Below are positions 7,766 through 28,682 of a stretch of 64,000 nucleotides of DNA, one piece after another (the first letter of the stretch is position 1; each line of letters begins with the position of its first letter). This DNA comes from Candidatus Hodarchaeota archaeon. Its GTDB lineage: Archaea; Asgardarchaeota; Lokiarchaeia; Sigyniarchaeales; SOKP01. The notes beneath the pieces are model-generated. The model did no database searches. It worked only from the letters and a program-made list of their open reading frames with translations, and was not told the origin of the DNA. The DNA lies in contig JBHLKM010000002.1 in NCBI GenBank assembly GCA_048886685.1, forward strand, positions 295,532 through 359,531, read 5' to 3'. Both the position numbers and the translations under genes were made by a program.

Positions 7766-8263
7766 ATGTCTAAGATTAAGTTTGAAGAAAATCAGATTAT
7801 AATTAGAAATTATAAAACCTCTGATTATCACGCTACATTAGAAATATTAAAACAACTTCATGATCTATATGATATCAAATTAAATGAAAATCAATGGAGA
7901 CAATCGTCTGGTCTTAGACAATTTAAACCAAATTTTAAAAGAATTACATTGATTGCTGAACTAAAATCTACTAATGAAATTATAGGTTTGGGAATGATTG
8001 AAGCTTCAAAAAATCCCTTAGGTCAATATATTGGATACTTGGATAATTGGGCAATTAAAAAAGAATTCATCGGAAAACAACTAGGTAGAATCTTGGCAGA
8101 TAAAGCAATTCAAATATTAAAATCATGGGGTTGTGAATCAATTAGAATCAATCTTGGCTATGGCGCTCCAGAAAAATTGCTTAAACTATTTGGACAAATT
8201 GGATTTAATCCTATTATAATTGTGTTGGAAAGAAGATTTATTAATGGAGGTAAAGAATGTTGA
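7766..8263 (+). CDS. GNAT-family acetyltransferase
   Basis: IIRNY...IGKQLGRILADKAIQILKSWGCESIRI; close paralogue of 43694..44221. Confidence 0.8.
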   Translation: MSKIKFEENQIIIRNYKTSDYHATLEILKQLHDLYDIKLNENQWRQSSGLRQFKPNFKRITLIAELKSTNEIIGLGMIEASKNPLGQYIGYLDNWAIKKEFIGKQLGRILADKAIQILKSWGCESIRINLGYGAPEKLLKLFGQIGFNPIIIVLERRFINGGKEC

Positions 8264-8460
8264 AAGTAAAAAATACGATATCAGCTGAAGTGTTTATGCC
8301 GCAATTATTATCAGAGGGTAAATATTTTTGGATTAAGGTGAGATTTTTGTACGGGTTTCATGATAAAATCATTGGAGCAATTGAGACAATTCCTGAAATA
8401 ACTAAATATAAAATAACTGAACAGAAATTAGAAGAATTAGAAAAAAGTAAAAATAAATAA
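8257..8460 (+). CDS. Hypothetical protein
   Basis: GGAGGT SD, overlaps the previous stop, operon-like position. Confidence 0.5.
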   Translation: MLKVKNTISAEVFMPQLLSEGKYFWIKVRFLYGFHDKIIGAIETIPEITKYKITEQKLEELEKSKNK

Positions 8461-8496
8461 GATATACTGAAAATTAATAAGAAATTAGTGATTTAA

Positions 8497-8781
8497 TTGG
8501 AAGAGATTGTTATTCGAATCTTGATAAAAGAAGATCCTGAAAATACTTGTGCAAAATGTTGTAAAACTATGCAAGCTGTTGAAAAAATGATGAACACAGT
8601 TAATATTTTCAAGGATAAAGTTGAAATTATATATCAGGATGTGACATCTAATGAGATTATTGAAGAATATGGAAACCTTGAACCACCTGTAATATTCATA
8701 AATGGAATATTGTTTACTACGGGACATGTTCCTATTATAAAAAAGCTTGGAAAAAAAATATTTGAAATGTTAAATGAATAA
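8497..8781 (+). CDS. Small thioredoxin-family redox-active disulfide protein (MTH895-like)
   Basis: CAKC motif, YGNLEPPVIFING...GHVP cis-Pro region. Confidence 0.78.
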   Translation: MEEIVIRILIKEDPENTCAKCCKTMQAVEKMMNTVNIFKDKVEIIYQDVTSNEIIEEYGNLEPPVIFINGILFTTGHVPIIKKLGKKIFEMLNE

Positions 8782-9179
8782 ATTAGTTTTAATATGAATT
8801 TAAAATTTGAAATGTCCATATCTCATCCAAATCTCTGATCGAGTTCGATCAATATGTCCACCCGTTATAAAAATTAATCATATAATATTATTTACTTTAA
8901 CCTTTTGTATAAGCTGTCTTTTCCTTAATTCCACACAGAGGTAATTCACAGAGATTTAATTTATTTTTTTGTCTTTTAAATTCCTTTTCCATTTCTTTTT
9001 CTAATTCTTCACTCGTTATATGTGTATTATAAATCTTCATATTATATCATCTCTTTATTTTCAGTTAAAAATCATATTTTACTATATTTTAATCGATTTT
9101 ATTAAGATCTTAAATTAACTTCATTTTTCGGTTTTAAAAAGTATGAAATTTTATTGTACTTCTCTTTTTTTTCTATGTT

Positions 9180-9395
9180 TTATTTTTGCATCCAGATCGA
9201 TATTGCGAAAGGATTTGAATTAATCTCCAAATTGTCTGAATTATGATTTAATTTATTTAATCTACCTTGTTTATCAATAAAAACACAGGGAGCTATTTCT
9301 ACTATTATTAGTTCTGGATTTACATTATAATTTCCATTATAATCTTCAAAGCATTTTTTATATTTTAATTTATTATTCATAATCTCTCTTTTCAT
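9180..9395 (-). CDS. Hypothetical protein
   Basis: ATG 19 nt downstream of the FrhB-fusion stop, GAGGGT SD-like sequence. Confidence 0.4.
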   Translation of the reverse strand: MKREIMNNKLKYKKCFEDYNGNYNVNPELIIVEIAPCVFIDKQGRLNKLNHNSDNLEINSNPFAISIWMQK

Positions 9396-9414
9396 TACTT
9401 ATTCAACCCTCTTT

Positions 9415-11286
9415 TCAAATAATATTTAATTCAATCGGTCTTGAGCTATCTCTTTTTATTCCTGCTAGCCTTTCTATTTTTAATTGAAGGGGTTTTTTAT
9501 CCAGGTGACTTTTAATTTCAATTAAACCATATTTGATAGCCCCATTAAAAATTTCTTCCCCTGTTTTCGTTCTTGTAATAACAGAAGACCATCCTACTTT
9601 GGAACCAATTGAACCAATTGAAAGATCTGCTAATTCAGCAGTAAAATCATCGCAATAATTACAGAAATCAGAACCATATAACTCACATTCCTCTAAAGGA
9701 ATTGAAAAGATTTCCCCAGATCGAAGAGTTATAACAAATTTTCCAACGTTTATGTCCATTTTAGTTATTTCGTCAATATTAGCACTGAATTTATTTCTAA
9801 AAAACTGAAGGATTTTCTTATAAGGAAAGGATTCTCTACAAAAAATCCCTATTTTATATTTTATATTGTTTAATAAAGGTATTTTTACTGGAAATAATTC
9901 ACCTTTAAAAATTGCTTTTATTTTACATGGTAGAGCAACTAGCGCTAGTTTTTCAAATTTTTTTGCTTTATCTAAAATTGATAAAATTGGAGCATGAACG
10001 TAGGTACTACCTGCTGCTTTATACAGGTCTTCTACTTTTTCTATTATGCTAACTTCAGGTTTCCAATATTTTTTTGAGTGTTTAATTGTTATTACTGCAT
10101 TTATTAAATTTTGGTTAAATAAATAATTGAGTAATGAAGTAACTACGCCTCCATCTTGTCCTACTTTTTTAATTGTATATTTTAATGTTCTTGCCGAAAA
10201 AATATTTTTATAATAACCTAATTCATTGGAATATTTTAAAGAAGTATCAGACTTTTTAATAAGCTTCTTTATTTTATCGATTGAAAAAGATTGTGGGCAT
10301 ACACTATAACATAGACCACAATTACAACATAAACCCTCATCCCTGTATAGATAATCTGTAGTAAGTTCAAGGCAATCTACTGGACATATTGATGTACATA
10401 AACCACAACGACAACAAACTTTATTATCCTGAACTATAGAAACTGATTTGAAATAATTCTTCCTATAACTTTCCTTAATTTCTTTAATTCTGTATTTATA
10501 ACAAAATTCTCTTAGTCCTATTGATTTATTATGATTTAATTTATATTCTGGAATTTCTTCAATGTATCCTTGTTCTTTTAAGTAAAAAATATCTCGAATG
10601 ATATTTTTTACTGAAAAATCAAAAAGATTTATTATTTCTTTTAATGTTAAGGGATTATATCTTTTTAATTCATCAAGTATATAATTCCTAGCAGTTTCAG
10701 CTTCAAAAATCGAATCTAATAAATATGTAAGATCACTTTCATTATATCTTCCTGATTTTAAAATATTTTCTTTTGCTTTGAATAATGATCTATATTGAAA
10801 ATTGTAAGAAGCCTTATATGATGAATATAGCAATTTTTTTATTGGAATCGTTTCAAAATCATAATTATAATTTGACGTTATATGTGTTTTTCGAATTCCT
10901 GAATTAACTGGATTAGGACCAGAATGAATTAATTTTCTTAAGAAATTTTTAAACGTTTCATCTAATTTAGTTTGATTGGTTCCATCAAATTTAAATAACT
11001 TTACTCTTTGATTACCTAAACCTCTTCTTCTTAAAATTCGATTTACTTCTTCTATCGGTTTATGAAATGAATTAAATTTTGAGATAAACTCATCTGTTAT
11101 TATTCTACCTTTAATTATAATAAATATACCGTCAAAACCAAGGTATATTGCCTTTAATAATTGTGTTATATCAAGTGTTCCTATATTCTCTAATTTACTA
11201 ATTTTAACAGAATCTAGTTCTTTAAATTTTTTGATTAATCTAAAATCTGATTCGTTATATTTATATCCAGGGCTCGAAAATATCAT
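9415..11286 (-). CDS. Fusion: Cys-less MvhD-like domain + winged helix + ferredoxin + FrhB/FdhB-family domain
   Basis: N-terminus aligns by eye with MvhD (LKAIYLGFDGIFII...GPNP) without Cys; wHTH-like PLTLKEIINLFDFSVKNIIRDIFYLKEQGYI; two CxxCxxCxxxCP; GQDGGVVT, LPCKIKA, GIFC, CNYCDDFTAELADLSIG. Confidence 0.8.
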   Translation of the reverse strand: MIFSSPGYKYNESDFRLIKKFKELDSVKISKLENIGTLDITQLLKAIYLGFDGIFIIIKGRIITDEFISKFNSFHKPIEEVNRILRRRGLGNQRVKLFKFDGTNQTKLDETFKNFLRKLIHSGPNPVNSGIRKTHITSNYNYDFETIPIKKLLYSSYKASYNFQYRSLFKAKENILKSGRYNESDLTYLLDSIFEAETARNYILDELKRYNPLTLKEIINLFDFSVKNIIRDIFYLKEQGYIEEIPEYKLNHNKSIGLREFCYKYRIKEIKESYRKNYFKSVSIVQDNKVCCRCGLCTSICPVDCLELTTDYLYRDEGLCCNCGLCYSVCPQSFSIDKIKKLIKKSDTSLKYSNELGYYKNIFSARTLKYTIKKVGQDGGVVTSLLNYLFNQNLINAVITIKHSKKYWKPEVSIIEKVEDLYKAAGSTYVHAPILSILDKAKKFEKLALVALPCKIKAIFKGELFPVKIPLLNNIKYKIGIFCRESFPYKKILQFFRNKFSANIDEITKMDINVGKFVITLRSGEIFSIPLEECELYGSDFCNYCDDFTAELADLSIGSIGSKVGWSSVITRTKTGEEIFNGAIKYGLIEIKSHLDKKPLQLKIERLAGIKRDSSRPIELNII

Positions 11287-11485
11287 TATTTTATATTCAA
11301 TAATAAATCACCAAATTTTTATGAATATATTTAATTTAAATAATTTTAATATTATATATCCAATAATTATATATGTAATTAGATCATTTATATGTTAGTA
11401 ATACTATAATGAATATAATAAAATCTATAAAACAATCATTAAAATTAATAGTAATATAAAAAATGAAACAAATTGATGTTAAAAA

Positions 11486-12922
11486 ATGATAACAAAAGAA
11501 CATATGATTGATTATTTACAATGCGATATTTCATCTTTTGGATTTCAAGACTTATATGATTTAGTTATAAGTAAGAAAAATTGCGTAAACTGTGGAGCTT
11601 GTCTCTCGATATGCCCTCGTATCGGTCTTAATGAAAATGAACCCATACTTATAGATTATGACCCACAATGTTCATTATGTTTCAAATATTGCCCAAGAAC
11701 ATTTTTTCCAAAAGAACTCTTTGAAAAAGAACTTTTTAATGAAAAAATCCAAAAAGATTTTCTTTTAGGTATTTTTCAAAAAATAACTGTTGCTAGAAGC
11801 ATTGATAATAATATTTTAAATAATGCTCAAAATGGTGGAGTCGTAACTGCATTACTTATTAATGCATTAAATTTAGGATTAATTGATGGAGTTATCATGG
11901 CTAATAAAGATGAAGATTGGCGCCCTAAACCCATCATAGCAAGAACTCCAGAAGAAGTAATTGATGCTGCGGGTTCAATCTATGCTATGATACCAACTTT
12001 AAGTATATATAAAAAAGCTGTGTACGATTATGAAATTGAAAATCTTGGATTTGTCGGCTTACCATGTCAAATTCAAGCAGTAAGAAAATTTCAATTGTGG
12101 CCACCTCTTTCAGACAAATATGGTAAATTTAAATTAATTATTGGATTATTTTGTTCATCTAATTATTCATATAACTCATTGTATAACATAATACACGATT
12201 TATTGGGAGTTTCTCCTAGGGAAATCAAAAAACTTGATGTTTCGCATGGGAAGTTTATTGTTTATTTGATTAATGGAACTGTTAAAAACATCTCAATAAA
12301 AGATACAAGTAAATTTCATTATTTAAGCTGTGAACATTGTAAAGATTATACTGCTGAATTTGCGGATATTTCCGTAGGGAGTGTAGGTGCCCTAAGTGAT
12401 AATTGGAATAGTGTTATTATTCGCTCTAACACAGGTCAAAAACTTTTTAATGATGCTTTAAAAAAAGGAAAAATAATTAATTCGAATAAATTAGATCTTA
12501 TCAAAATCAAGAAAGCTTCCAAAAAGAAGAAAACGCAAATAATGGAAATGAGCGACAAGATTTATTCTGCTCTTAAATTATTTAATATAACTAAACCTCA
12601 AGTAAAAGTATACACTACACTTTTATCCTTAAGAGAAGCTGATTTGTCTTTGTTGAGTGAAATTATGAAGTTAAAGCCCGAAATAGTGTATAATATACTT
12701 AAAATATTGGAGCAGAGAAAATGGATATCTAAAAATAAAAATTTTTACAGACCAATTAATCCTTCTCAAGTATTGAAAAATGAAATAAATCAATATTTAA
12801 GTAAATTCAAAAATCACGTCAATATAATTAAAAGAAAGATTTTAAAGGATTTAAATACAATTTTTATACAAAATAATCTAATGGATGTAGAAAATCTGGA
12901 CTTCATGGATATCATTTTCTAA
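11486..12922 (+). CDS. FrhB/FdhB-family protein with C-terminal TrmB-like winged helix
   Basis: CVNCGACLSICP, AQNGGVVT, GLPCQ, IGLFC, CEHCKDYTAEFADISVG; C-terminal LKLFNITKPQVKVYTTLL...VYNILKILEQRKWI...YRPINP. Confidence 0.85.
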   Translation: MITKEHMIDYLQCDISSFGFQDLYDLVISKKNCVNCGACLSICPRIGLNENEPILIDYDPQCSLCFKYCPRTFFPKELFEKELFNEKIQKDFLLGIFQKITVARSIDNNILNNAQNGGVVTALLINALNLGLIDGVIMANKDEDWRPKPIIARTPEEVIDAAGSIYAMIPTLSIYKKAVYDYEIENLGFVGLPCQIQAVRKFQLWPPLSDKYGKFKLIIGLFCSSNYSYNSLYNIIHDLLGVSPREIKKLDVSHGKFIVYLINGTVKNISIKDTSKFHYLSCEHCKDYTAEFADISVGSVGALSDNWNSVIIRSNTGQKLFNDALKKGKIINSNKLDLIKIKKASKKKKTQIMEMSDKIYSALKLFNITKPQVKVYTTLLSLREADLSLLSEIMKLKPEIVYNILKILEQRKWISKNKNFYRPINPSQVLKNEINQYLSKFKNHVNIIKRKILKDLNTIFIQNNLMDVENLDFMDIIF

Positions 12923-13018
12923 AAATAAAAATATAATTTTATAACTCTACTTAATGTTGATGTAAACGATTAGTCTGAATTTTCTTTGGCCCGATTAATT
13001 AAAATTTAAAAAAAAAAT

Positions 13019-14704
13019 TTAAGTAGAGATTCTTATTTTATTTCCTAGCAAGATCTTCCTTGCTTGTTCAAAAGCATAATTATAATCAAAAACTTTTTTT
13101 CCTTTAGTATTCGATGCTTCTTTAAGGATCTCCGCCTCGATATTAGATTTTAAGCGTCCTAATGCTAATGCACCAATTCCGAAAATACTTGGGTATATTT
13201 CTTTGTAATCATCTTTTGGCTTTAAACCCTCAACACCATAAGGAGGGACAAGATTAATATCGATTATAAGCTTGTTTTGAAGTTTAATTAGTAAATCTTT
13301 TGATAAAATTTGTACAGCAGCAGCAGCTAGACTCCAAATTATATCCGCATCTTTTACTATTTCTAATTTCTTTTCATCATTTGGTGCGAAGACACCGATT
13401 ATTTCAGTATCGTTTACTCCAACTTCTTCATTTAATTCTTTTACTAGGTTTTTAATGAAATTTTCATTTGATTTTTCCCAAGTTTCAACCAAATAAGTTT
13501 TACATTTTAATTTCGTTGCTAATATTGCAGCAATTCTTCCAACAGGTCCTGCTCCAAAGATGACTATTTTTTTCCCTTTTAAATCAAACAAATCATTCTT
13601 TTTAGAAATTTCCATAGTTTTAGCGACTATTGAAGCGGCAGTAGTATGAGAACCACGAGGATCAATAATTACTGGGCATTCAAAAGGAGGTACCAACGAT
13701 TCTATTACTTTTTTAGCAATTTTTTCACCCTCTTTAACATTGGATCCACCAATAAAGAACGTGGTAGGAGCTTTCGGTTTTCTAGAAAAAATAGCATCTT
13801 GAACAAGTTTTGGGACTTGATCAGCAGTCATCCTACTAAAGGGGATGACAATATCAAAGCCAGCATCATAAGCCATATTTATATCGAAAGGAGAAGCATT
13901 ATTATCAGTATCAAAAAAATAACATATTTTTTCTAACGTTTCATTCTGTTTCACTTTAATTGGAGTTAATTCGATTATAGATTTACCAATGATAGTTTTA
14001 AATGAATTAGAACGAGGATTGTTTACAACTCTAGCTAACCGTTTGATTTTTATTTCTTCTGTTTCAATGCCTAATTCTTCTGCCAGTTGAGTGATCCCTT
14101 TGAAATGCCTAGGATCACAGAAAAAAAATGCTGTTAATTTTCCTCCTGCCATTTCCTTCGCAAATTTTAAAATGCCCATCATCATCCATGCTTCTCGAAC
14201 TTCGTATCTTATTTTATTCTCGTGAAGGTTGTATTCTTGTTGTAGGTATTCCCTCCATAAAAACATACGTTGAAACTCAAAATTATCTTTTGGAAATGTT
14301 TTTCCGTTAACCTTTATCATAGCTTTAATCGATTTTGTTAATTGTTTTATAAGTGTTCTAAGATCCTCCAAATTCGAGGAAAGATAATTTTCTGCGTTTT
14401 CTGAAATATCTACTATTTTATAAGGGATATGATTTTCTTCAAATAATGATTCTAGAGGATCATCAGGAGAAATTGTATCTTCCCAACGACTTCCTTTTTC
14501 TTCTAATGCGAAATCAGGATTGTATTTACCTATCAACTCTTTAATTAGATTGAGGTACTCTTTAGAAATCAAATGTAAATTCCATACTAAATCGTGCCTT
14601 TTCTGTGCTGATGTCTCAAACCACCAATCTATTGGAAATTCACTTTCAATCAATACTAATTTCAAACTCTTTCTCTTTAGAGGTTTTAACTCTAAAACTT
14701 CCAT
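13019..14704 (-). CDS. NAD(P)-dependent methylene-H4MPT dehydrogenase (MtdA/MtdB family) fused to an N-terminal domain of unknown function
   Basis: FFDTDNNASPFDINMAYDAGFD, LVQDAIFSR, FFIGG, DPRGSHTTAAS, GAGPVG, DINLVPPYGVEG, GIGALALGRLK. Confidence 0.85.
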   Translation of the reverse strand: MEVLELKPLKRKSLKLVLIESEFPIDWWFETSAQKRHDLVWNLHLISKEYLNLIKELIGKYNPDFALEEKGSRWEDTISPDDPLESLFEENHIPYKIVDISENAENYLSSNLEDLRTLIKQLTKSIKAMIKVNGKTFPKDNFEFQRMFLWREYLQQEYNLHENKIRYEVREAWMMMGILKFAKEMAGGKLTAFFFCDPRHFKGITQLAEELGIETEEIKIKRLARVVNNPRSNSFKTIIGKSIIELTPIKVKQNETLEKICYFFDTDNNASPFDINMAYDAGFDIVIPFSRMTADQVPKLVQDAIFSRKPKAPTTFFIGGSNVKEGEKIAKKVIESLVPPFECPVIIDPRGSHTTAASIVAKTMEISKKNDLFDLKGKKIVIFGAGPVGRIAAILATKLKCKTYLVETWEKSNENFIKNLVKELNEEVGVNDTEIIGVFAPNDEKKLEIVKDADIIWSLAAAAVQILSKDLLIKLQNKLIIDINLVPPYGVEGLKPKDDYKEIYPSIFGIGALALGRLKSNIEAEILKEASNTKGKKVFDYNYAFEQARKILLGNKIRIST

Positions 14705-15333
14705 TAATTACTCTCCCCCTGTTTTATAATTAAATATGGAATATTATGAATACTATAATAATCATAGACAATCGCCTCTATTTGAAGCTCTTTTAATTGT
14801 TTTATTATTTCTGGAAGAGTTATTTTATGAGCAAAATGAATAAGAAAAATTTTTTCATTTTGATAGGTCCTAACTATATCTAAGATTTTTTTAACAATCC
14901 ACTGTGGTCTTGTTTTCAATTCTAGAATATTTTTATCCTGAAAAACCTCCTTCTTTAGAACATCAATCCAAGATTTTAGATTTAATCCTTTAAAAGAATA
15001 TTTATCATCCATATTTCGATATTCCTGTAATAGTTCACTAATTTTTTCTTCATTTTTTGTTATTTCAGCATACAGACACCCATATGCATGCTCAGGCATA
15101 TCCAATAGGTAATATTCGATGTTAAAAGCATTTAAAATCCTTAATAGAGTTGAATTTTTAAAGGTTTTGAAATTTATCCCATTTATATCAACAGTAATAA
15201 ATTTAATGTTATTATTCTCTATTATTTCCTTTAAAATTTCAAGATCAGTAAGTTGAGAATCAAATCCTATATTTTCCAATAAATATATAACTATTTTTTT
15301 ATTGCTTATCGGTTTTAATTTTAATACTTCCAT
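14704..15333 (-). CDS. Uncharacterised protein, paralogue of the Mtd N-terminal domain and of 32708..33322
   Basis: Starts MEVLKLKPI versus MEVLELKPL; shared Y-x-x-D/E-x-P segment followed by a coiled coil; 1-nt overlap with the downstream gene. Confidence 0.8.
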   Translation of the reverse strand: MEVLKLKPISNKKIVIYLLENIGFDSQLTDLEILKEIIENNNIKFITVDINGINFKTFKNSTLLRILNAFNIEYYLLDMPEHAYGCLYAEITKNEEKISELLQEYRNMDDKYSFKGLNLKSWIDVLKKEVFQDKNILELKTRPQWIVKKILDIVRTYQNEKIFLIHFAHKITLPEIIKQLKELQIEAIVYDYYSIHNIPYLIIKQGESN

Positions 15334-15376
15334 CTTAATTATCCACCTTTTTAAAATTATTCTTAAAATGTATACA

Positions 15377-15440
15377 TGGAACTGTCATAACGTTATTAAA
15401 CGACCCCTTTCCGTATTTTTGAGCTATGAGATTAGTTCCA
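15377..15440 (-). promoter_or_regulatory. Candidate structured 5'-leader RNA
   Basis: UGGAACU/AGUUCCA and UCAUAGC/GUUAUGA nested helices, 43 nt upstream of the 15333 start. Confidence 0.35.
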
Positions 15441-16096
15441 ATTAGATAATAAGTTGATTAAAATTTAAATAGTTTGAAAAGAAAATTTTTCGTCATTTTG
15501 ACAAATTAAATTTTCAAAAAATTTCTTTAATAATTATTCTTTTCATATAAAAAATTGAAATTTAACCTCATTATAATAATCATACAATTTTAAAAGAGAT
15601 ATTTTAAAAATTGTTTTAGTCAAATTACTTATCAAAAAAATTTTAGTTACAGTTTAATACAATTTTTTGTTGATAGAGGTTAAAAGTTTTAGTAGAATTA
15701 CTAATGAAAGAGTATAGACAAATTTGTTAGATATTAATTAACAAATCTGTACAAATTTATAAATATTTTGTGCTTTTTAAAAATTTTGTTAAATAAAATC
15801 TATAAATTGAAAATAGAATTCTCCTTTTTGATCATTGACATACTCAATCTTACCTTTTATTCTTATTATTATAACTAAAATTCTCAATTATCTATAATAT
15901 CACTATTATAATTAAACAATAAAAATGAGGAAAAGCTCTATTAGATGCAAGGATTTTTAAATAAAAATTACCTCTTTCATAATGGGATTAGATCTTTTTA
16001 AAAAATATATTTTAAAAAAAACACAATATTGTCAAAATAATATATTTAATTCCTGAAAATATCAGGTTTTAAATTAAAAATGGGGGTGGTAAATAC

Positions 16097-16249
16097 ATGT
16101 TAATAGAAAAGATAGAAGAGAAAGAAATATGTAATAAGTGTAAGGCACCTTTAGAAGGTAATGACTATATATACAGACGTAAAGCATCTAATGTTATAAC
16201 ATATGTGTGTTCTAAATGTGGATATTTTGAGATTTATATCAAGGAGTAA
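16097..16249 (+). CDS. 50-aa zinc-ribbon microprotein
   Basis: Below ORF-track cutoff: MLIEKIEEKEICNKCKAPLEGNDYIYRRKASNVITYVCSKCGYFEIYIKE; GGGGGTGGT SD; ends 6 nt before the next gene. Confidence 0.75.
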   Translation: MLIEKIEEKEICNKCKAPLEGNDYIYRRKASNVITYVCSKCGYFEIYIKE

Positions 16250-16255
16250 AAGTCC

Positions 16256-17506
16256 ATGTCTTCTTACATTAATAATGAAATTAAGTGTAGCATTTGTAAA
16301 TATCAAAACTTAGGTGAAAATATTAAAAATGTAATTTCAATGGCAAATTATTGTTATGCTTGCAATAGATGTGTTAATGTGTGTCCACTTTCGCATTTAG
16401 ATGTATTTTTTCCGCGAACATTAGTAGGAGATTTAGTCCTCTCTTCATTCGGAGAAGTTTTAAATAATCATAATATCTGGGATTGTCTTACATGTGGTCA
16501 ATGTACAATATATTGTCCAATGAGTCAAGAGAATGTAGGAGTAAGAATACCCGAATTAATTTTGGAGTTGAGAAAGGCATCAAGAAATAATAAAATTCAA
16601 ATTAATAGAATACTTGAGAGCCAAACTCATAATGAAATCTTCCCGATAATTTCGAAAATGATGGCAAATAATCCAATAAATCCAAACAAATTAGAGTTTT
16701 TAAAGGAAAAAGGCCTAAAAACAACAGATTCAGGTGATATTGCGTATTTTGTTGGCTGCTTGCCTTTAATGGAAGAAATATTTTATAGCTTTAAAATTAA
16801 TTATAACAACATACCTATAACAATAATAAGTCTACTTAATGAAGCCAATATAGTACCAGTAGTTTTAAATGAAAAATGTTGCGGGCATGATATTTTATGG
16901 GGTGAGGGCGATATTGAAACTTTTAAAAAATTGGCCGAATATAATACTCAGCTTTACAAAGATGCTGAAGTAAAAACTGTTATAGTTGGATGTGCTGAAG
17001 GATATAGAACTTGGAAATATGATTATCCAAAAATAATAGATGGATTTGATTTCAAAGTTTTTCATTTTTCTGAATTTTTTCTAAAAGAGAAAATTCTTGA
17101 CCATTTAAAATTCCCTCGAAATCTCGAGACTAAGGTAACTTATCATGATTCTTGTCGAATGGGCCGTTTAGGCGGAAAATTATATGAAGCCCCAAGAGAA
17201 TTAATTAGACAAATTCCTGGAGTCGAATTAATTGAAATGGATAATATAAAAGATGATTCTAATTGTTGTGGCATCGCAACATTTCTAAATTGTAATGAAT
17301 ATACACGCGTTTTAAGGAAAAATCGTATCAATGAAGCAATTGATACCAGAGCAGAATATTTAATTGTCTCTTGTCCAAAATGTTTAACACATTTTAATTG
17401 TTATCTTAACGACCCTTCCTCAAATGAAGAGAAAAAAGGGTTAAGAAATAAAATAAAGGTGATCGACTTAGCAAGTTTGATTGGTAAATTGCTTCTGCTT
17501 GTTTAA
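16256..17506 (+). CDS. HdrD/GlpC-like Fe-S oxidoreductase (2x[4Fe-4S] + two CCG domains)
   Basis: CYACNRCVNVCP, CLTCGQCTIYCP, FVGC, EKCCG, GCAEG, YHDSC, CCG, SCPKC. Confidence 0.9.
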   Translation: MSSYINNEIKCSICKYQNLGENIKNVISMANYCYACNRCVNVCPLSHLDVFFPRTLVGDLVLSSFGEVLNNHNIWDCLTCGQCTIYCPMSQENVGVRIPELILELRKASRNNKIQINRILESQTHNEIFPIISKMMANNPINPNKLEFLKEKGLKTTDSGDIAYFVGCLPLMEEIFYSFKINYNNIPITIISLLNEANIVPVVLNEKCCGHDILWGEGDIETFKKLAEYNTQLYKDAEVKTVIVGCAEGYRTWKYDYPKIIDGFDFKVFHFSEFFLKEKILDHLKFPRNLETKVTYHDSCRMGRLGGKLYEAPRELIRQIPGVELIEMDNIKDDSNCCGIATFLNCNEYTRVLRKNRINEAIDTRAEYLIVSCPKCLTHFNCYLNDPSSNEEKKGLRNKIKVIDLASLIGKLLLLV

Positions 17507-22428: not shown

Positions 22429-24465
22429 TAATATTTTATGAGGAGCTAGTGCTTCAATCTTTTTCCAAATAAGTTCAATAGATTCGATATACTGTTCCTT
22501 ATATTCAAGTTCAGTACTACAGATTCCTTTCATTTCTTCAATAATTTGTTTGTCTCTATAATATTTGAGATCAATTGCACGAGCTGGACATGAAGATACA
22601 CAAACCCCGCAACCTTTACACTTTAAATCATCTACTTCCGCAATATCTTCTCCATTGACTGTGATTGCTTTATTAACACAGAGCTTCTCACATCTATGAC
22701 AACCCATGCACAGATTTTCATCTATTTCAGCAATAATTAATTCTTGAATTATTGAATCTTTAGAAATTAATGTTGAAACCTTACTTGCAGCGGCTAACGC
22801 TGTTGATACTGAATAAGGGATATTTTTGGGTCCGGCGGCACATCCACATATATAAATGCCCATATTATTTGTCTCTTGAGGTTTTAAGCATCCATGAACT
22901 TCTGTCAAAAATCCGTTCATATCTTTACTTAAACCCAAAATCTCAATTATTTCAGCTGTGCCTTTAGAAGGGACCATGCCTGTTGATAAAACAACTAAAT
23001 CGGTATTCATTATAATGAAATCATTTGTTAAAGTTGAAGCAGCAGTAATCCTAATCTTTTTTGTTGCAGGATCTTCTCGTATATCTCCCACTTTTCCCCG
23101 AATCATCATTATGCCTGCTTCTCTCGCTTTTCTATAATATTCCTCATTTCCTTTATCCCATGCCCGTATATCTATATAAAAAATAGTAATCTCCATATTA
23201 GGATATTCTTGTTTTAACAATTGAGCATTTTTAAGAGCAACACTGCAGCATACTACTGAACAATATGGATTACCTTTTAAAGTTCTTGAACCAACACATT
23301 GAATCATAGCTACTGTTTTAGGGATCTTTCCATCAGAAATCCTATATATATGACCTCCTGTAGGTCCAACTGGACTTAACATTCGTTCTAACTCTATTTG
23401 TGTAATTACATTGGGATAAATCCCATATTTATATTCATTATTTTTCATAATTGGGTATTCATCCCATCCTGTGGCAATAATTACTGCTCCAACTTTTAAT
23501 GTAATATCTTTTGGGGTTTGTTCAAATTCAATAGCTTCAGCGGGGCAAATTCTTTGACAATTTTTACATTCTATTCATACACTCCTATCAATTAGAGCTA
23601 CTTTTGGTACTGATTGGGGAAAAGGTATGTAAATTGCTTTTCGTTCGCCAATACCTCTGTTAAATTCGTTAGGTACTTCTATTGGTCATTTCGTTGTACA
23701 TAATTCACAACCAGTACACTTGTTTTCATTAATATATCGAGGTTTTTTATGTATTTTAACATTATAATTTCCAGGTATGCCGCTGAATTTACTAATTTCG
23801 CTATAGGTAAATAATGTTATATTTGGATGTTTTGAGACACTTACCATAATAGGTGCTAGAACTCATATCGCACAATCATCAGTGGGATAAATTCGATCTA
23901 ATTTTGCCATTTTTCCACCAATAGTGGCTTCTTTTTCGACTAAATACACATTTATTCCTTGATTTGCTAAATCTAATGCAGCATTCATCCCTGCAATACC
24001 AGCGCCGATAATTAATACAGATTTTTCTACTGATACTCTTTTATTAGGTATGATTTCTAATTCTCTAGCACGATTTATCCCTGCTTGCACTAACCTTATA
24101 GCTTTTTCAGTAATTCTTTTCTTATTTCCCGAGTGAGCAAATGAGCATTGTTCGCGAAGATTAACCATTTGGAAATAATATGGGTTTAAACCCGCTTCAG
24201 CTAGCACTGCTCGATAAGTAGATTCATGAATTTTAGGTGTACAAGCTGCCACAACAACACGATTTAAGTCTAAATCTAAAATATCGTTTTTGATAATATT
24301 TTGTCCTGGATTGCTGCAAGTAAAATTGTTCACTCTAGCAACAATAATACCAGGGAGTGCCTCAACATAATCTCTAATAAGCTCGCAATCGATACTGTTA
24401 CTAATATTAACTCCTCATCTACAGATATAGAATCCAATTCTAACATTGGTCTGTTTTTCAGACAT
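22414..24465 (-). CDS. hdrA: Selenocysteine-containing HdrA, 683 aa, four in-frame UGA (codons 17, 201, 260, 297)
   Basis: Joins ORFs 23863..24333 and 22414..23448 in one frame from ATG 24465. UGA at 24415-17 (YICR-U-GVNI), 23863-65 (DDCAI-U-VLAP), 23686-88 ([12 protein letters not shown]) and 23575-77 ([12 protein letters not shown]). All align to Cys of the neighbouring HdrA; no other stops or frameshifts. Confidence 0.93.
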
Positions 24466-24905
24466 TTAATCTACCTTTTTCAACTATCACCTAATATTTT
24501 TCATGATAAAATTTCAAAATTCTGAGTAAAGAAAAACAAAAATTTGCTAAAAGGTAATTATAATTACTTCTGATGATATTTTCCGATTAAATAATGAGCT
24601 AAGAGAAATTTAAAAAATTTGATAAGACAAATTTTGATTATTTTGATAAATTTATTTATCAATCCTTTTATTAAAATTATGGATCTGATCCTTATCTGAT
24701 CTTTTTCGTATCAATATATTATCACTTTTCAAATGTATGATGGAATTCTTAATTATTGGTCTTAATGATCCTTGATCATAATAAGGATGAAAAGGATCAC
24801 ATTTATATATTATGACAATTATTTTTATCATAGAGATCATTTATTTTATTAAAATAGTCAAAAGAATTTTTAAAATGATTAATCTTAAATTGGTGATTTT
24901 TAATA

Positions 24906-26132: not shown

Positions 26133-28682
26133 ATGGATATATACACAATATTATCTCATCCATTCAGAAGAAAAATCTTATTTCTTCTTGAAAAGGAGGG
26201 CTATATTCCCTATACAGATTTAATGGAAAAACTTGGTTTAGAAACAACAGGACAACTAAATTTTCATCTGAAGAAGATCGGTTCATTAATAAATAAAGAC
26301 AAAAAATCATATTTTCTTACTGAAGATGGTAAACGCGTACTTAAAATTCTCAATCTCAACAAAAGAATTTTATCAGGAGAAAATATTGATGAGTATTTAG
26401 ACTCTAGGGGAAGCGAGATAAGCAGGATTGGAGTAATCATTTGTTATTGCAATACAGAAATTTCAAAGGTAATAAATATAACTGCCCTTGAAAATTATAT
26501 AAATAAGTTAAGAAAGGTAGTTTCGGTAAAGGTCTTTGAAAACTTATGTCAGCAAAAAAATTTTAATAGAATTGGTAAATGGGTTAAAGATAATTTTTTG
26601 AATAAAATTGTGATAGCTGCATGTTCTCCAAGAACACATCAACATCTTTTTGAACGAATTTTTGAGAAAACTATTGATCGAGCTAATTTAGAAATAGCTA
26701 ATATTAGGGAACAATGTTGTTGGGTCCATCAATCTAAAATATATCAAACAGATCTCTCATTTTTATTAGAAAAAACTAAATTATTAATTGAAGCAGCTGT
26801 TGAACGGGTAAGTCTTCAAAAAAAAGTAAAAATTAAGAGAGTTGAAGTAGAAAAGAGTTGTGCAATTTTAGGTGGGGGAATTGCTGGTATAACACTTGCC
26901 TTAAATTTAGCTCGAGCTGGAATTGAAGTATATCTCATTGAAAAATCACCTACCTTGGGAGGTAAGGTAGCCAGATGGCACCGAATCCATAATATGGGTG
27001 ATTGTTCAATATGTCTCATTTCAGAATTGATAGGTGAATTAGTAAATGAGAAAAAAATAAAGATTTATACTAATACTGAAATTGAAAATGTATCAGGTGA
27101 AGTTGGAAATTTCACAATTAAATTGATTAAAAAACCTCGATATATTAATGTGAAAAAATGTACTGGATGTAAACAATGTTTAGAAGTTTGTAGTATAGAA
27201 AAGACAAATCAATATGAATTTGGTTTAACTAATCGAAAAATCATATATATCCCTTTTATTCATTCGTATCCCTATGTTCCTTTGATTGATGAAGAAGATA
27301 TAAAAAATTGTCTTAATTGTAGAATTTGTGAACGTGTATGTGAAAATAAAGCAATAGATTTGACTCAAAAAGAAGAAAAAATCGAAATCAAAGTTGGAAC
27401 TAAAGTAATTGCGATTGGTTCTGACTTTTACGAGGATTTAGAGGATTATCATTATAATTCCAAAAAAAATATAATAACATCAATGGAATTTGAACGAATA
27501 TTATCTTCTGATGGCATCACTGAAGGAAAGCTTTTAACGTTATCAGATAAAAAACCAATAGAATCAATTTCTATCATTCAAGAGGTTGGTCCATCAAAAT
27601 ATCTTGCTGATTACTCAGAAATCTTAGCACAAAAATATATTGAGGATATTAAAATAAAAAATCCTGATTGCGAAGTTAATGTCTTTTATGATTTAAGTAA
27701 ATTAAAAGATAAGGATGAGATTTTATTAAGATCATCTAATCCAAGATTTATATATGCAGACAAAATTACAATTGAGACCAATAAAGATCTAAATTACATT
27801 GTTGCTGATAATATTAAGTTTCCAAGTGATTTAATTGTATTAAATCTAAAATTTATCCCTAATAAAGATTTAAAAAACCTTCGAAAATATATGGATTTTA
27901 CATTAGATGATAATGGATTTATGAGTGAGGAAACATTAGCATCTGGAATTTATGGTGTTGGGACGATTTTTGGTCCATTAAATTATAATTCTACAATTTC
28001 AACAGCTAACAATACTGCATTAAAAATTATTTCATTGCTTTCTAAAGAATATTTAATTGCAGAGTTTACAGGGATAGAAATTGATGAAAATAAATGTGGT
28101 TTGTGTGGTTTGTGTTCTAAAATTTGTCCTTATAATGCTATTACAACAGAATCAGACAAAATAAGTATAGACAAATTTAAGTGTAAAGGCTGTGGTACAT
28201 GCGCTAGTGTGTGTCCAACAAATGCAATAGATTTAAACTTAGACTCTTCTGAGAAGATTTTAAAGACAATTGAAATTTTTTCGAAATTCAGAGCACAACC
28301 AAAAATTCTTGCCTTCTGTTGCGCATCTTGCGGATATGCTGCAGCTGATGATGCTGGTCTTAAGAAGGTCTCCTATAATCCAAATACTTTTATCGTTCGG
28401 GTTCCATGTACAGGACGTATTGATACAAATTTTATTATTAAATCATTTGAGCTCGGATTCGATGGAGTAATGATAATTGGCTGTAGACAAGATGCATGCA
28501 GATATATTGACGGAATAGAAAAAGTAAAGAAAAAAATTATGTTATTAAAGAATATCATACTGCCGAAATATAAAGATCGAATAGTCCTTGAACATTTAAA
28601 TGCTGTAGAGGGTACCAAATTTGCTGAAATCTCAAATAAATTATATAACAAATTAGTCGAGGAGATTAAATTTGAAACCTAG
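26133..28682 (+). CDS. Fusion: ArsR-like winged helix + degenerate HdrA + MvhD
   Basis: N-terminal LSHPFRRKILFLL...TGQLNFHLKKI...YFLTEDG; HdrA motifs IICYC, AACSPRTH, NIREQC, GGGIAG, four ferredoxin motifs; C-terminal AFCCASCGYAAAD, RVPCTGR, GCRQDACRY. Confidence 0.9.
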   Translation: MDIYTILSHPFRRKILFLLEKEGYIPYTDLMEKLGLETTGQLNFHLKKIGSLINKDKKSYFLTEDGKRVLKILNLNKRILSGENIDEYLDSRGSEISRIGVIICYCNTEISKVINITALENYINKLRKVVSVKVFENLCQQKNFNRIGKWVKDNFLNKIVIAACSPRTHQHLFERIFEKTIDRANLEIANIREQCCWVHQSKIYQTDLSFLLEKTKLLIEAAVERVSLQKKVKIKRVEVEKSCAILGGGIAGITLALNLARAGIEVYLIEKSPTLGGKVARWHRIHNMGDCSICLISELIGELVNEKKIKIYTNTEIENVSGEVGNFTIKLIKKPRYINVKKCTGCKQCLEVCSIEKTNQYEFGLTNRKIIYIPFIHSYPYVPLIDEEDIKNCLNCRICERVCENKAIDLTQKEEKIEIKVGTKVIAIGSDFYEDLEDYHYNSKKNIITSMEFERILSSDGITEGKLLTLSDKKPIESISIIQEVGPSKYLADYSEILAQKYIEDIKIKNPDCEVNVFYDLSKLKDKDEILLRSSNPRFIYADKITIETNKDLNYIVADNIKFPSDLIVLNLKFIPNKDLKNLRKYMDFTLDDNGFMSEETLASGIYGVGTIFGPLNYNSTISTANNTALKIISLLSKEYLIAEFTGIEIDENKCGLCGLCSKICPYNAITTESDKISIDKFKCKGCGTCASVCPTNAIDLNLDSSEKILKTIEIFSKFRAQPKILAFCCASCGYAAADDAGLKKVSYNPNTFIVRVPCTGRIDTNFIIKSFELGFDGVMIIGCRQDACRYIDGIEKVKKKIMLLKNIILPKYKDRIVLEHLNAVEGTKFAEISNKLYNKLVEEIKFET

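Follow-up and report, generated by a model that had tools for sequence, protein, structure and literature searches.

The closest described relatives of the two genes considered here are plug-in modules that wire partner enzymes to the cofactor F420, among them the zeta subunit of carbon monoxide dehydrogenase and FwdI of Ca. Ethanoperedens (PDB 8RIU, 8RJA); the zeta subunit docks on its partner enzyme through the ferredoxin domain at its N-terminus and forms a homodimer by way of a 20-residue C-terminal extension (PMC11493965). The genes, called A and B here, lie in a 64,000-nucleotide stretch (hereafter the window, about 28% G+C) at positions 295,532 to 359,531 of contig JBHLKM010000002.1 from a Loki-type Asgard archaeon recorded as Candidatus Hodarchaeota archaeon (assembly GCA_048886685.1; 4.4 Mb over 47 contigs). 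Both encode the ferredoxin and FrhB parts known from the zeta subunit, FwdI, FrhB and the N-terminal half of Fsr, with the same cofactor motifs and at 30-34% identity, joined to a winged helix that none of those proteins carries; in B a TrmB-type module stands where the zeta subunit has its dimerisation extension. B is best read as a previously undescribed variety of TrmB-type one-component regulator, and A is a new, fused and cluster-less variety of the arrangement in which an MvhD adaptor is combined with FrhB.

Three further systems help to place the pair. In the TrmB family (P. furiosus TrmB, TrmBL1/Tgr, TrmBL2 and S. acidocaldarius MalR), autoregulation and sites at or beside the transcription factor B recognition element (BRE) and TATA box are typical; a site at or downstream of TATA is associated with repression and one upstream of BRE/TATA with activation, and the sugar-binding effector domain is absent from TrmBL2 and MreA (PMC4158304). 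In class II benzoyl-CoA reductase, an HdrA-type complex, the MvhD-homologous adaptor BamF carries an extra winged helix-turn-helix that forms the interface with the input-module subunit BamI, according to a cryo-electron microscopy preprint (bioRxiv 10.64898/2026.04.10.717634). A full-text literature search found no description of fusions of FrhB with TrmB, or of MvhD with a winged helix and FrhB, and no F420-responsive regulator of B's kind. PutA is a flavoenzyme with a DNA-binding domain and Rex senses NADH/NAD+ through a winged-helix protein; B would resemble both in passing the redox state of an enzyme-fold cofactor to a DNA-binding domain of the same chain, although their folds and cofactors are unrelated to its own.

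The main features of the locus are as follows; the boundaries and opposite strands of A and B, and the 199 base pairs (bp) between them, are those given by an earlier sequence-only reading.

9415 to 11286, minus strand: gene A, 623 residues, with a cysteine-free MvhD-like part, a winged helix, a ferredoxin with two [4Fe-4S] motifs, and FrhB (open reading frame and translation, Pfam, NCBIfam, AlphaFold2)
10888 to 11286, minus strand: A residues 1-133, MvhD/FlpD-like, all [2Fe-2S] cysteine ligands lost (Pfam, fold match, cysteine count)
10483 to 10740, minus strand: A residues 183-268, acidic winged helix of the ArsR/Phr type with a nearly invariant third helix (AlphaFold2, profile, charge, conservation)
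9445 to 10428, minus strand: A residues 287-614, ferredoxin with eight invariant cysteines and FrhB of the F420-reductase type with four cluster cysteines (Pfam, alignment)
11287 to 11485, no strand: intergenic region between A and B, 199 bp (open reading frame calls)
11382 to 11395, plus strand: element GATCATTTATATGT, 14 nucleotides, BRE/TATA-like, candidate shared operator or promoter of A and B (conservation, k-mer count, position weight matrix)
11486 to 12922, plus strand: gene B, 478 residues, with ferredoxin, FrhB, a TrmB-type winged helix and a long helix (open reading frame, Pfam, NCBIfam, AlphaFold2)
11564 to 12544, plus strand: B residues 27-353, ferredoxin with seven invariant cysteines and FrhB (Pfam, NF006807, alignment to 8riu_B)
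12572 to 12886, plus strand: B residues 363-467, TrmB-type winged helix with Y402-N403 in the recognition helix, and amphipathic helix 426-467 (Pfam, profile, fold)

Pfam matches were judged against the curated cut-offs (FlpD 22.3, TrmB 25.6, FrhB_N 22, FrhB_C 23.3, HTH_DeoR 21 and HTH_5 22 bits), and full-length AlphaFold2 models of A and B were each built from a 48-sequence alignment. For B, the earlier call of FrhB plus a TrmB-like winged helix stands, both domains scoring above their cut-offs, and it had missed the N-terminal ferredoxin (motif at residues 27-70) with its seven invariant cysteines. The protein matches NF006807 at 275 bits against a cut-off of 269, FrhB_N at 87 and FrhB_C at 141 bits, and keeps the FrhB cysteines C194/223/282/285 invariant across its family; the model has a predicted local distance difference test score (pLDDT) of 87.5 and a predicted template modelling score (pTM) of 0.85. 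The FrhB family also includes chlorophyll reductases that use ferredoxin only. Every FrhB cluster and flavin motif of the F420-reductase subunit 8riu_B is kept in A and B, with the QNGG/QDGG and AGSxY motifs of both in alignment, and 8riu_B is the closest fold to B (Z 42.6) as well as the top match of A (Z 37.0), followed for both by FwdI, Fsr and FrhB. The source genome encodes CofH, CofD and CofE, all above curated cut-offs, and so very probably makes F420; given these genes and the retained motifs, F420 is a plausible cofactor of both proteins. The nearest solved relatives of both reduce it (PMC11493965).

The C-terminal part of B is a whole TrmB DNA-binding unit. Residues 363-426 match PF01978 at 29.3 bits, a profile of this part alone finds TrmB 3qph (E 5.7e-5) and TrmBL2 (E 1e-4) in the PDB, and residues 2-120 of TrmBL2 superpose on B 354-471 (Z 12.6-12.8, root-mean-square deviation 1.8-2.9 Å over 109-115 residues). 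That superposition, like the family module itself, takes in both winged helix and dimerisation helix, the predicted helix 426-467 of B aligning with the coiled-coil helix of TrmBL2 up to residue 120. In TrmB regulators the recognition helix binds DNA through a tyrosine followed by Asp, Asn or Glu; the counterpart in B is Y402-N403, aligned with Y50-D51, a DNA contact in TrmB, and identical to Y51-N52 of MalR. The winged helix of the window protein is basic (net charge +6, of the wing +5); a polar or basic residue occupies the Y402 position in 34 of the 48 family members. B differs from the family in that its module is C-terminal instead of N-terminal, that ferredoxin-FrhB takes the position of the sugar-binding effector domain, and that its candidate site is not a palindrome of the TACT or TGM type. 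Close stand-alone relatives of the TrmB part amount to one 140-residue fragment, and the nearest unfused relatives of the enzyme part (35-38% identity) come from ANME-1 and Methanosarcinales.

Genomic context also bears on the function of B. Among about 45 loci, which like all locus sets used here include related genomes and are not independent samples, B is monocistronic nearly always, flanked on either side by gaps of 200-400 bp and next to different neighbours in different loci; about three-quarters of B loci have no A gene within 7 kb. In Borrarchaeum it stands alone between two operons of Hdr/FrhB/GlcD type, in keeping with a regulator. No B is present in a 99%-complete genome of the same genus or in four genomes of the same family, where the nearest relative of its winged helix is a stand-alone TrmB-like open reading frame of about 270 residues. 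Homologues of A and B are almost exclusively Asgard (by record name, and thus as submitters gave them, Promethearchaeota/Loki-, Thor-, Hermod-, Hod-, Heimdall-, Borr- and Sifarchaeum), and both architectures are confined to Asgard archaea within the data searched.

A candidate regulatory signal is shared by the two genes. In 17 loci, whose B proteins are 51-100% identical to that of the window, element GATCATTTATATGT, a TATA-like core with BRE-like flanks, precedes B at a fixed position, 89-95 (up to 123) nucleotides from the ATG, with the motif start at 98-104 and at most 122 nucleotides; its 9-mer ACATATAAA is found in 13 of the 42 regions upstream of B and in none of the 183 remaining intergenic regions of these loci. 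Likewise, in all nine loci with an A-type gene near B (eight long forms of A, defined below, and the short form of L051), the element stands in reverse orientation 69-104 nucleotides before that gene. The sequence-only reading had proposed a divergent shared promoter; the two genes are divergent in the window, but the layout is not conserved, related loci being divergent, convergent or tandem. Because each gene has its own copy even in the two convergent and two tandem pairs among the nine loci, GATCATTTATATGT is more than the relic of one bidirectional promoter. It would overlap the BRE/TATA of B, and for A it would lie between TATA and the start site or just upstream of TATA.

Other candidate signals fared less well. 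That GATCATTTATATGT is a general promoter consensus was rejected, since intergenic DNA elsewhere seldom contains it and the genome gives one strong hit: with the weight matrix the window site scores 24.6 bits and the next best in the whole 4.4 Mb 18.8. For the looser WWAWATGATC, the window has 7 copies against an expected 7.4, as chance alone would give. A TGM-like dyad, TATCA-N7-TGATA, 25-50 nucleotides before B was dropped as an operator, being perfect in L033 only, with varying spacing and second half elsewhere.

Gene A presents a different picture. Its composition had been predicted correctly, as Pfam and an AlphaFold2 winged helix at residues 183-267 confirm. Residues 8-119 match FlpD/MvhD weakly, at 27.2 bits, yet above threshold, and MvhD 5odh_D superposes on residues 1-133 (Z 10.3, root-mean-square deviation 2.9 over 120 residues); there is no cysteine in residues 1-140, where relatives carry 0-3, and the aligned positions are cysteine or selenocysteine in the true MvhD copies of the window and of L002. 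Two 4Fe-4S motifs follow at residues 287-340, with the family-invariant C291/294/297/301/320/323/326/330, and then FrhB_N (69 bits) and FrhB_C (127 bits) with the invariant cluster cysteines C454/483/542/545; the model has a pLDDT of 83.4 and a pTM of 0.85.

The winged helix of A comprises helices 183-207, 215-221 and 226-238 and a wing at 242-267. Pfam matches at residues 200-243 are sub-threshold (HTH_DeoR 18.7 and HTH_5 14.2 bits), the fold match is generic (Z about 6), and the family profile finds the ArsR-type Phr 2p4w (E 2e-4) and PH1932 (E 6e-4). Its surface is acidic: net charge is -2 in the window protein and -5 on average in the family, helix 3 averages -1.8, and glutamate or aspartate stands where Phr has glutamine or histidine, so the polar or basic DNA-contact face of the ArsR/Phr type is missing. 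An ESM Atlas look-up with the A winged helix returned FlpD+HTH_5 clusters at scores of merely 0.80-0.84, a lead rather than evidence. An exhaustive profile search with the first 285 residues of A yielded only 42 cluster representatives, among them P0266, a stand-alone protein of 268 residues in which a winged helix comes after a true MvhD domain.

The relatives of A suggest where it came from. A-type proteins occur as a form of 620 residues with the MvhD-like part and a commoner one of about 500 without it; the long form is always outside Hdr operons, and short forms encoded within operons show the same degree of conservation in the winged helix. Borrarchaeum genomes carry the short form inside a tightly spaced operon, ordered HdrA-N, HdrA-like, MvhD (FlpD E 1e-34), wHTH-ferredoxin-FrhB (wHTH, winged helix-turn-helix), HdrD-like, CCG proteins, HdrA and MvhD, and elsewhere in the source genome an MvhD gene with two apparent selenocysteines immediately precedes a short A paralog, as in Borrarchaeum. 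Because short A relatives directly follow MvhD in Hdr operons, the window's A is read as a fusion of two adjacent subunit genes. A split form is represented by the 145-residue MvhD-like P0252 and the 422-residue A-type P0171, each from a contig of 17,361 bp, which suggests that the two come from one contig.

The selenocysteine gene lies at L002:13157-13716 (own genome, contig C2, about 241 kb), in what looks like an unannotated gap, with an HdrA-like gene on one side and the short A paralog on the other. The MvhD homologue encoded there has two in-frame stop codons at cluster cysteine positions and is probably a two-selenocysteine MvhD.

The organisation of A is close to that described for BamF, compared here by description: in each, an MvhD-like domain leads through a winged helix to an input module. 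The differences are that BamF keeps its [2Fe-2S] cluster and relays electrons, whereas the MvhD-like part of A has no cysteine, and that A is fused to the input module itself. Because gene context, surface charge and the BamF precedent point in different directions for the two genes, A and B are read differently. An earlier proposal that both might sense the F420/F420H2 ratio fits B, with its TrmB module, monocistronic context and gene-specific element; in A the operon relatives, acidic winged helix and BamF precedent argue the other way.

On this basis, B would be a one-component redox or F420 regulator and A a co-regulated derivative of an Hdr module with a structural winged helix, a combination that we propose tentatively, with slightly less than even confidence in the whole. 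For its parts, that B binds DNA and responds to redox state seems, from sequence, model and analogy, a little likelier than the opposite; that the winged helix of A is a protein interface is, by analogy with BamF, somewhat more probable than not.

Mechanistically, the sugar-binding effector of TrmB would have been replaced in B by an N-terminal F420:iron-sulfur oxidoreductase module with two clusters, a [4Fe-4S] cluster and flavin adenine dinucleotide, in a dimer held by the long helix. The ferredoxin-FrhB part would be reduced by F420H2 or would exchange electrons with a docked partner enzyme; the redox state of flavin and clusters, or the docking state, might then shift the seating of the C-terminal dimer of winged helix and coiled coil, and with it the occupancy of the candidate operator GATCATTTATATGT at the promoters of B and A. 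An element at its own promoter would be in keeping with the autoregulation of the TrmB family. A, for its part, would descend from two adjacent subunits of an Hdr-type flavin-based bifurcating complex, MvhD and the wHTH-ferredoxin-FrhB protein that serves as F420 input module: the genes would have fused, with loss of the [2Fe-2S] ligands from the MvhD part and relocation of the fused gene to a site outside the operon, under the promoter element of B. Its present role would be that of an F420 input module that brings its own adaptor to an HdrA-type core; given the cluster loss, operon exit and co-regulation with B, a derived function, possibly in regulation, is also conceivable.

Several observations weigh against DNA binding by B. 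The Y402-N403 pair is shared by the window protein with its nearest relatives, but tyrosine at this position occurs in just 7 of the 48 family members, and the N-terminal end of the recognition helix is acidic in many members of the family. GATCATTTATATGT has no dyad, unlike the usual TrmB operators, which weakens its link to a TrmB-type dimer, and it could be no more than a core promoter of unusual conservation, or be bound by a different factor. B also keeps the ferredoxin domain that anchors its relatives to partner enzymes, and a pTM of 0.85 suggests that its winged helix packs on the enzyme core in the model. For A the difficulty is the reverse: the nearly invariant third helix, ArsR/DeoR-like, would fit a conserved DNA site too.

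Such points lend themselves to a rival account, in which neither protein binds DNA, both are F420 input or output modules of Hdr- or GlcD-type complexes, the winged helices are scaffolding or dimerisation devices, and the element is read by another factor. To the acidic start of the recognition helix in many B family members and the high pTM, which suggests rigid domain packing in A as well as B, it can add the BamF precedent of a structural winged helix in an MvhD adaptor, and the C-terminal extension of the zeta subunit 8riu_B, which only dimerises, as the TrmB part of B might. Electron-transfer ligands of the ferredoxin and FrhB parts are all retained in both proteins, short forms of A lie inside operons, and the Borrarchaeum B lies 260 bp upstream of a FrhB/GlcD/HdrD-like operon. 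This account, the main rival, is nevertheless fairly unlikely: the neighbours of B differ from locus to locus with promoter-sized gaps between, B has the entire TrmB DNA-binding unit and not just a coiled coil, and the window's clade of B has the Tyr-Asn contact pair and a basic wing.

The Borrarchaeum genes that follow B (L042:5885-8146; L022:13138-16973) encode a Fer4-FrhB-like protein, a GlcD-type flavin oxidase and a GlcF/HdrD-like CCG protein, the first two fused into one protein of 753 residues in one genome. Their composition suggests an F420-linked 2-hydroxyacid dehydrogenase of the lactate/glycolate type.

Less probable again is the original sequence-only proposal in its full form, that A and B are both DNA-binding sensors of the F420/F420H2 ratio acting on their common intergenic region. 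Both winged helices are homologous to those of regulator families, A and B share a conserved upstream element, and a third winged-helix redox fusion nearby has a conserved palindrome at its own promoter; the long A, outside Hdr operons and with the MvhD cluster lost, could moreover be a neofunctionalised copy. These arguments meet the acidic winged helix of A, with glutamate and aspartate in place of the glutamine and histidine of ArsR/Phr, its equal conservation in operon-embedded short forms, its helix-turn-helix scores under the Pfam cut-offs, and the unconserved divergent layout, so that we consider the proposal quite improbable. The view that the fusions lack a specific function, being gene models in decay or produced by accident, as the absence of B from close relatives and a frameshifted small open reading frame after A might be taken to indicate, is contradicted by over 400 proteins of the B type and over 100 of the A type with intact frames, invariant cofactor ligands, conserved extra domains and 45-82% identity, and deserves almost no credence.

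The preferred reading, with B as regulator and A as co-regulated module, may extend to a third fusion downstream. The count of three helix-turn-helix-oxidoreductase fusions within 20 kb proves right, all existing and spanning 19.3 kb:

26133 to 28682, plus strand: DUF7347 winged helix, HdrA, ferredoxin and MvhD in one protein, followed by MvhG and MvhA (Pfam)

The promoter of its operon (24796-24850) has GATCA-TATA elements flanking a palindrome, TGACAA-N6-TTATCA, which is conserved right after the GATCA-TATA element in L033, L037 and L039. From these related GATCA-TATA elements, the sequences hint at common control of all three fusions. In the broadest form of the proposal, B would be the first transcription factor to read F420 or linked iron-sulfur redox state directly, with a whole FrhB enzyme module as sensor, and together with A and the wHTH-HdrA-MvhD protein would form an Asgard layer in which parts of the Hdr/Mvh/Frh electron-bifurcation machinery report redox and hydrogen status directly to promoters of the GATCA-TATA type; we regard this as an attractive but doubtful extension. 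Upstream of the operon (Fer4-FrhB, wHTH-HdrA-MvhD, MvhGA), region 24465-24905 contains seven GATC sites versus 0.7 expected, and an ATGATC-N3-GATCAT dyad there is seen in this window only.

Directly after A lies a small open reading frame that matches no Pfam family:

9160 to 9395, minus strand: small open reading frame of about 75-86 residues, 20 nucleotides after A, with basic C-terminus LDAKIKHRKKRE (tblastn, related loci)

It is present directly after A also in L029, L033, L037, L038, L063 and L051, where it encodes 81-86 residues and ends in a conserved basic tail, LDAKIKHRKKREGD. In the window, tblastn finds it as two pieces in two frames, with the tail out of frame near the end; this is a frameshift or sequencing error.

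On the other side of the pair, the window encodes an MtdB-like fusion of 561 residues (Mpt_N domain) and a preceding protein of 209 residues without a family (13019-15333, minus strand). The two recur beside B or A in at least 10 loci and may share a functional neighbourhood with them.

A paralog of B, here B', is found on contig C21 of the same genome (L001:6350-7798). The region before it (L001:6105-6349) includes about 230 nucleotides strongly conserved across B' and 13 orthologous loci, with two long inverted repeats, ATACTGCTAC...GTAGCAGTAT and AAGCGAAACAAATCC...GGATTTGTTCGCTT, which RNAalifold pairs, some of the substitutions being compensatory or to G-U. The region may form a structured leader RNA, or else serve as an array of operators; Rfam gives no match there, nor in the A-B region at 8200-16300.

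The source genome has 17 FrhB_C matches, several within other fusions: with a GltD-like Fer4_20 and pyridine-nucleotide-disulfide oxidoreductase part (L004:6437-9172, 911 residues), with an NAD_binding_1 and DHODB iron-sulfur part (L005:6196-8013, 605 residues), and with extensions of about 140 residues that lack a family, N-terminal in a protein of 497 residues (L003:6195-7688) and C-terminal in one of 496 (L002:4390-5880).

How archaea sense hydrogen and redox supply is a long-standing open question, and a 2011 review reported that no H2 sensor had been found in model methanogens (PMC3087415). If the reading of B is true, a TrmB regulator with an F420-reactive enzyme as its effector would offer a concrete, testable candidate sensor of cofactor redox state among the archaea most closely related to eukaryotes, and GATCATTTATATGT provides a ready DNA probe. 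The pair would also show one domain type serving regulation in one fusion and scaffolding in its neighbour, and it cautions against calling every fusion of a winged helix with an enzyme a regulator.

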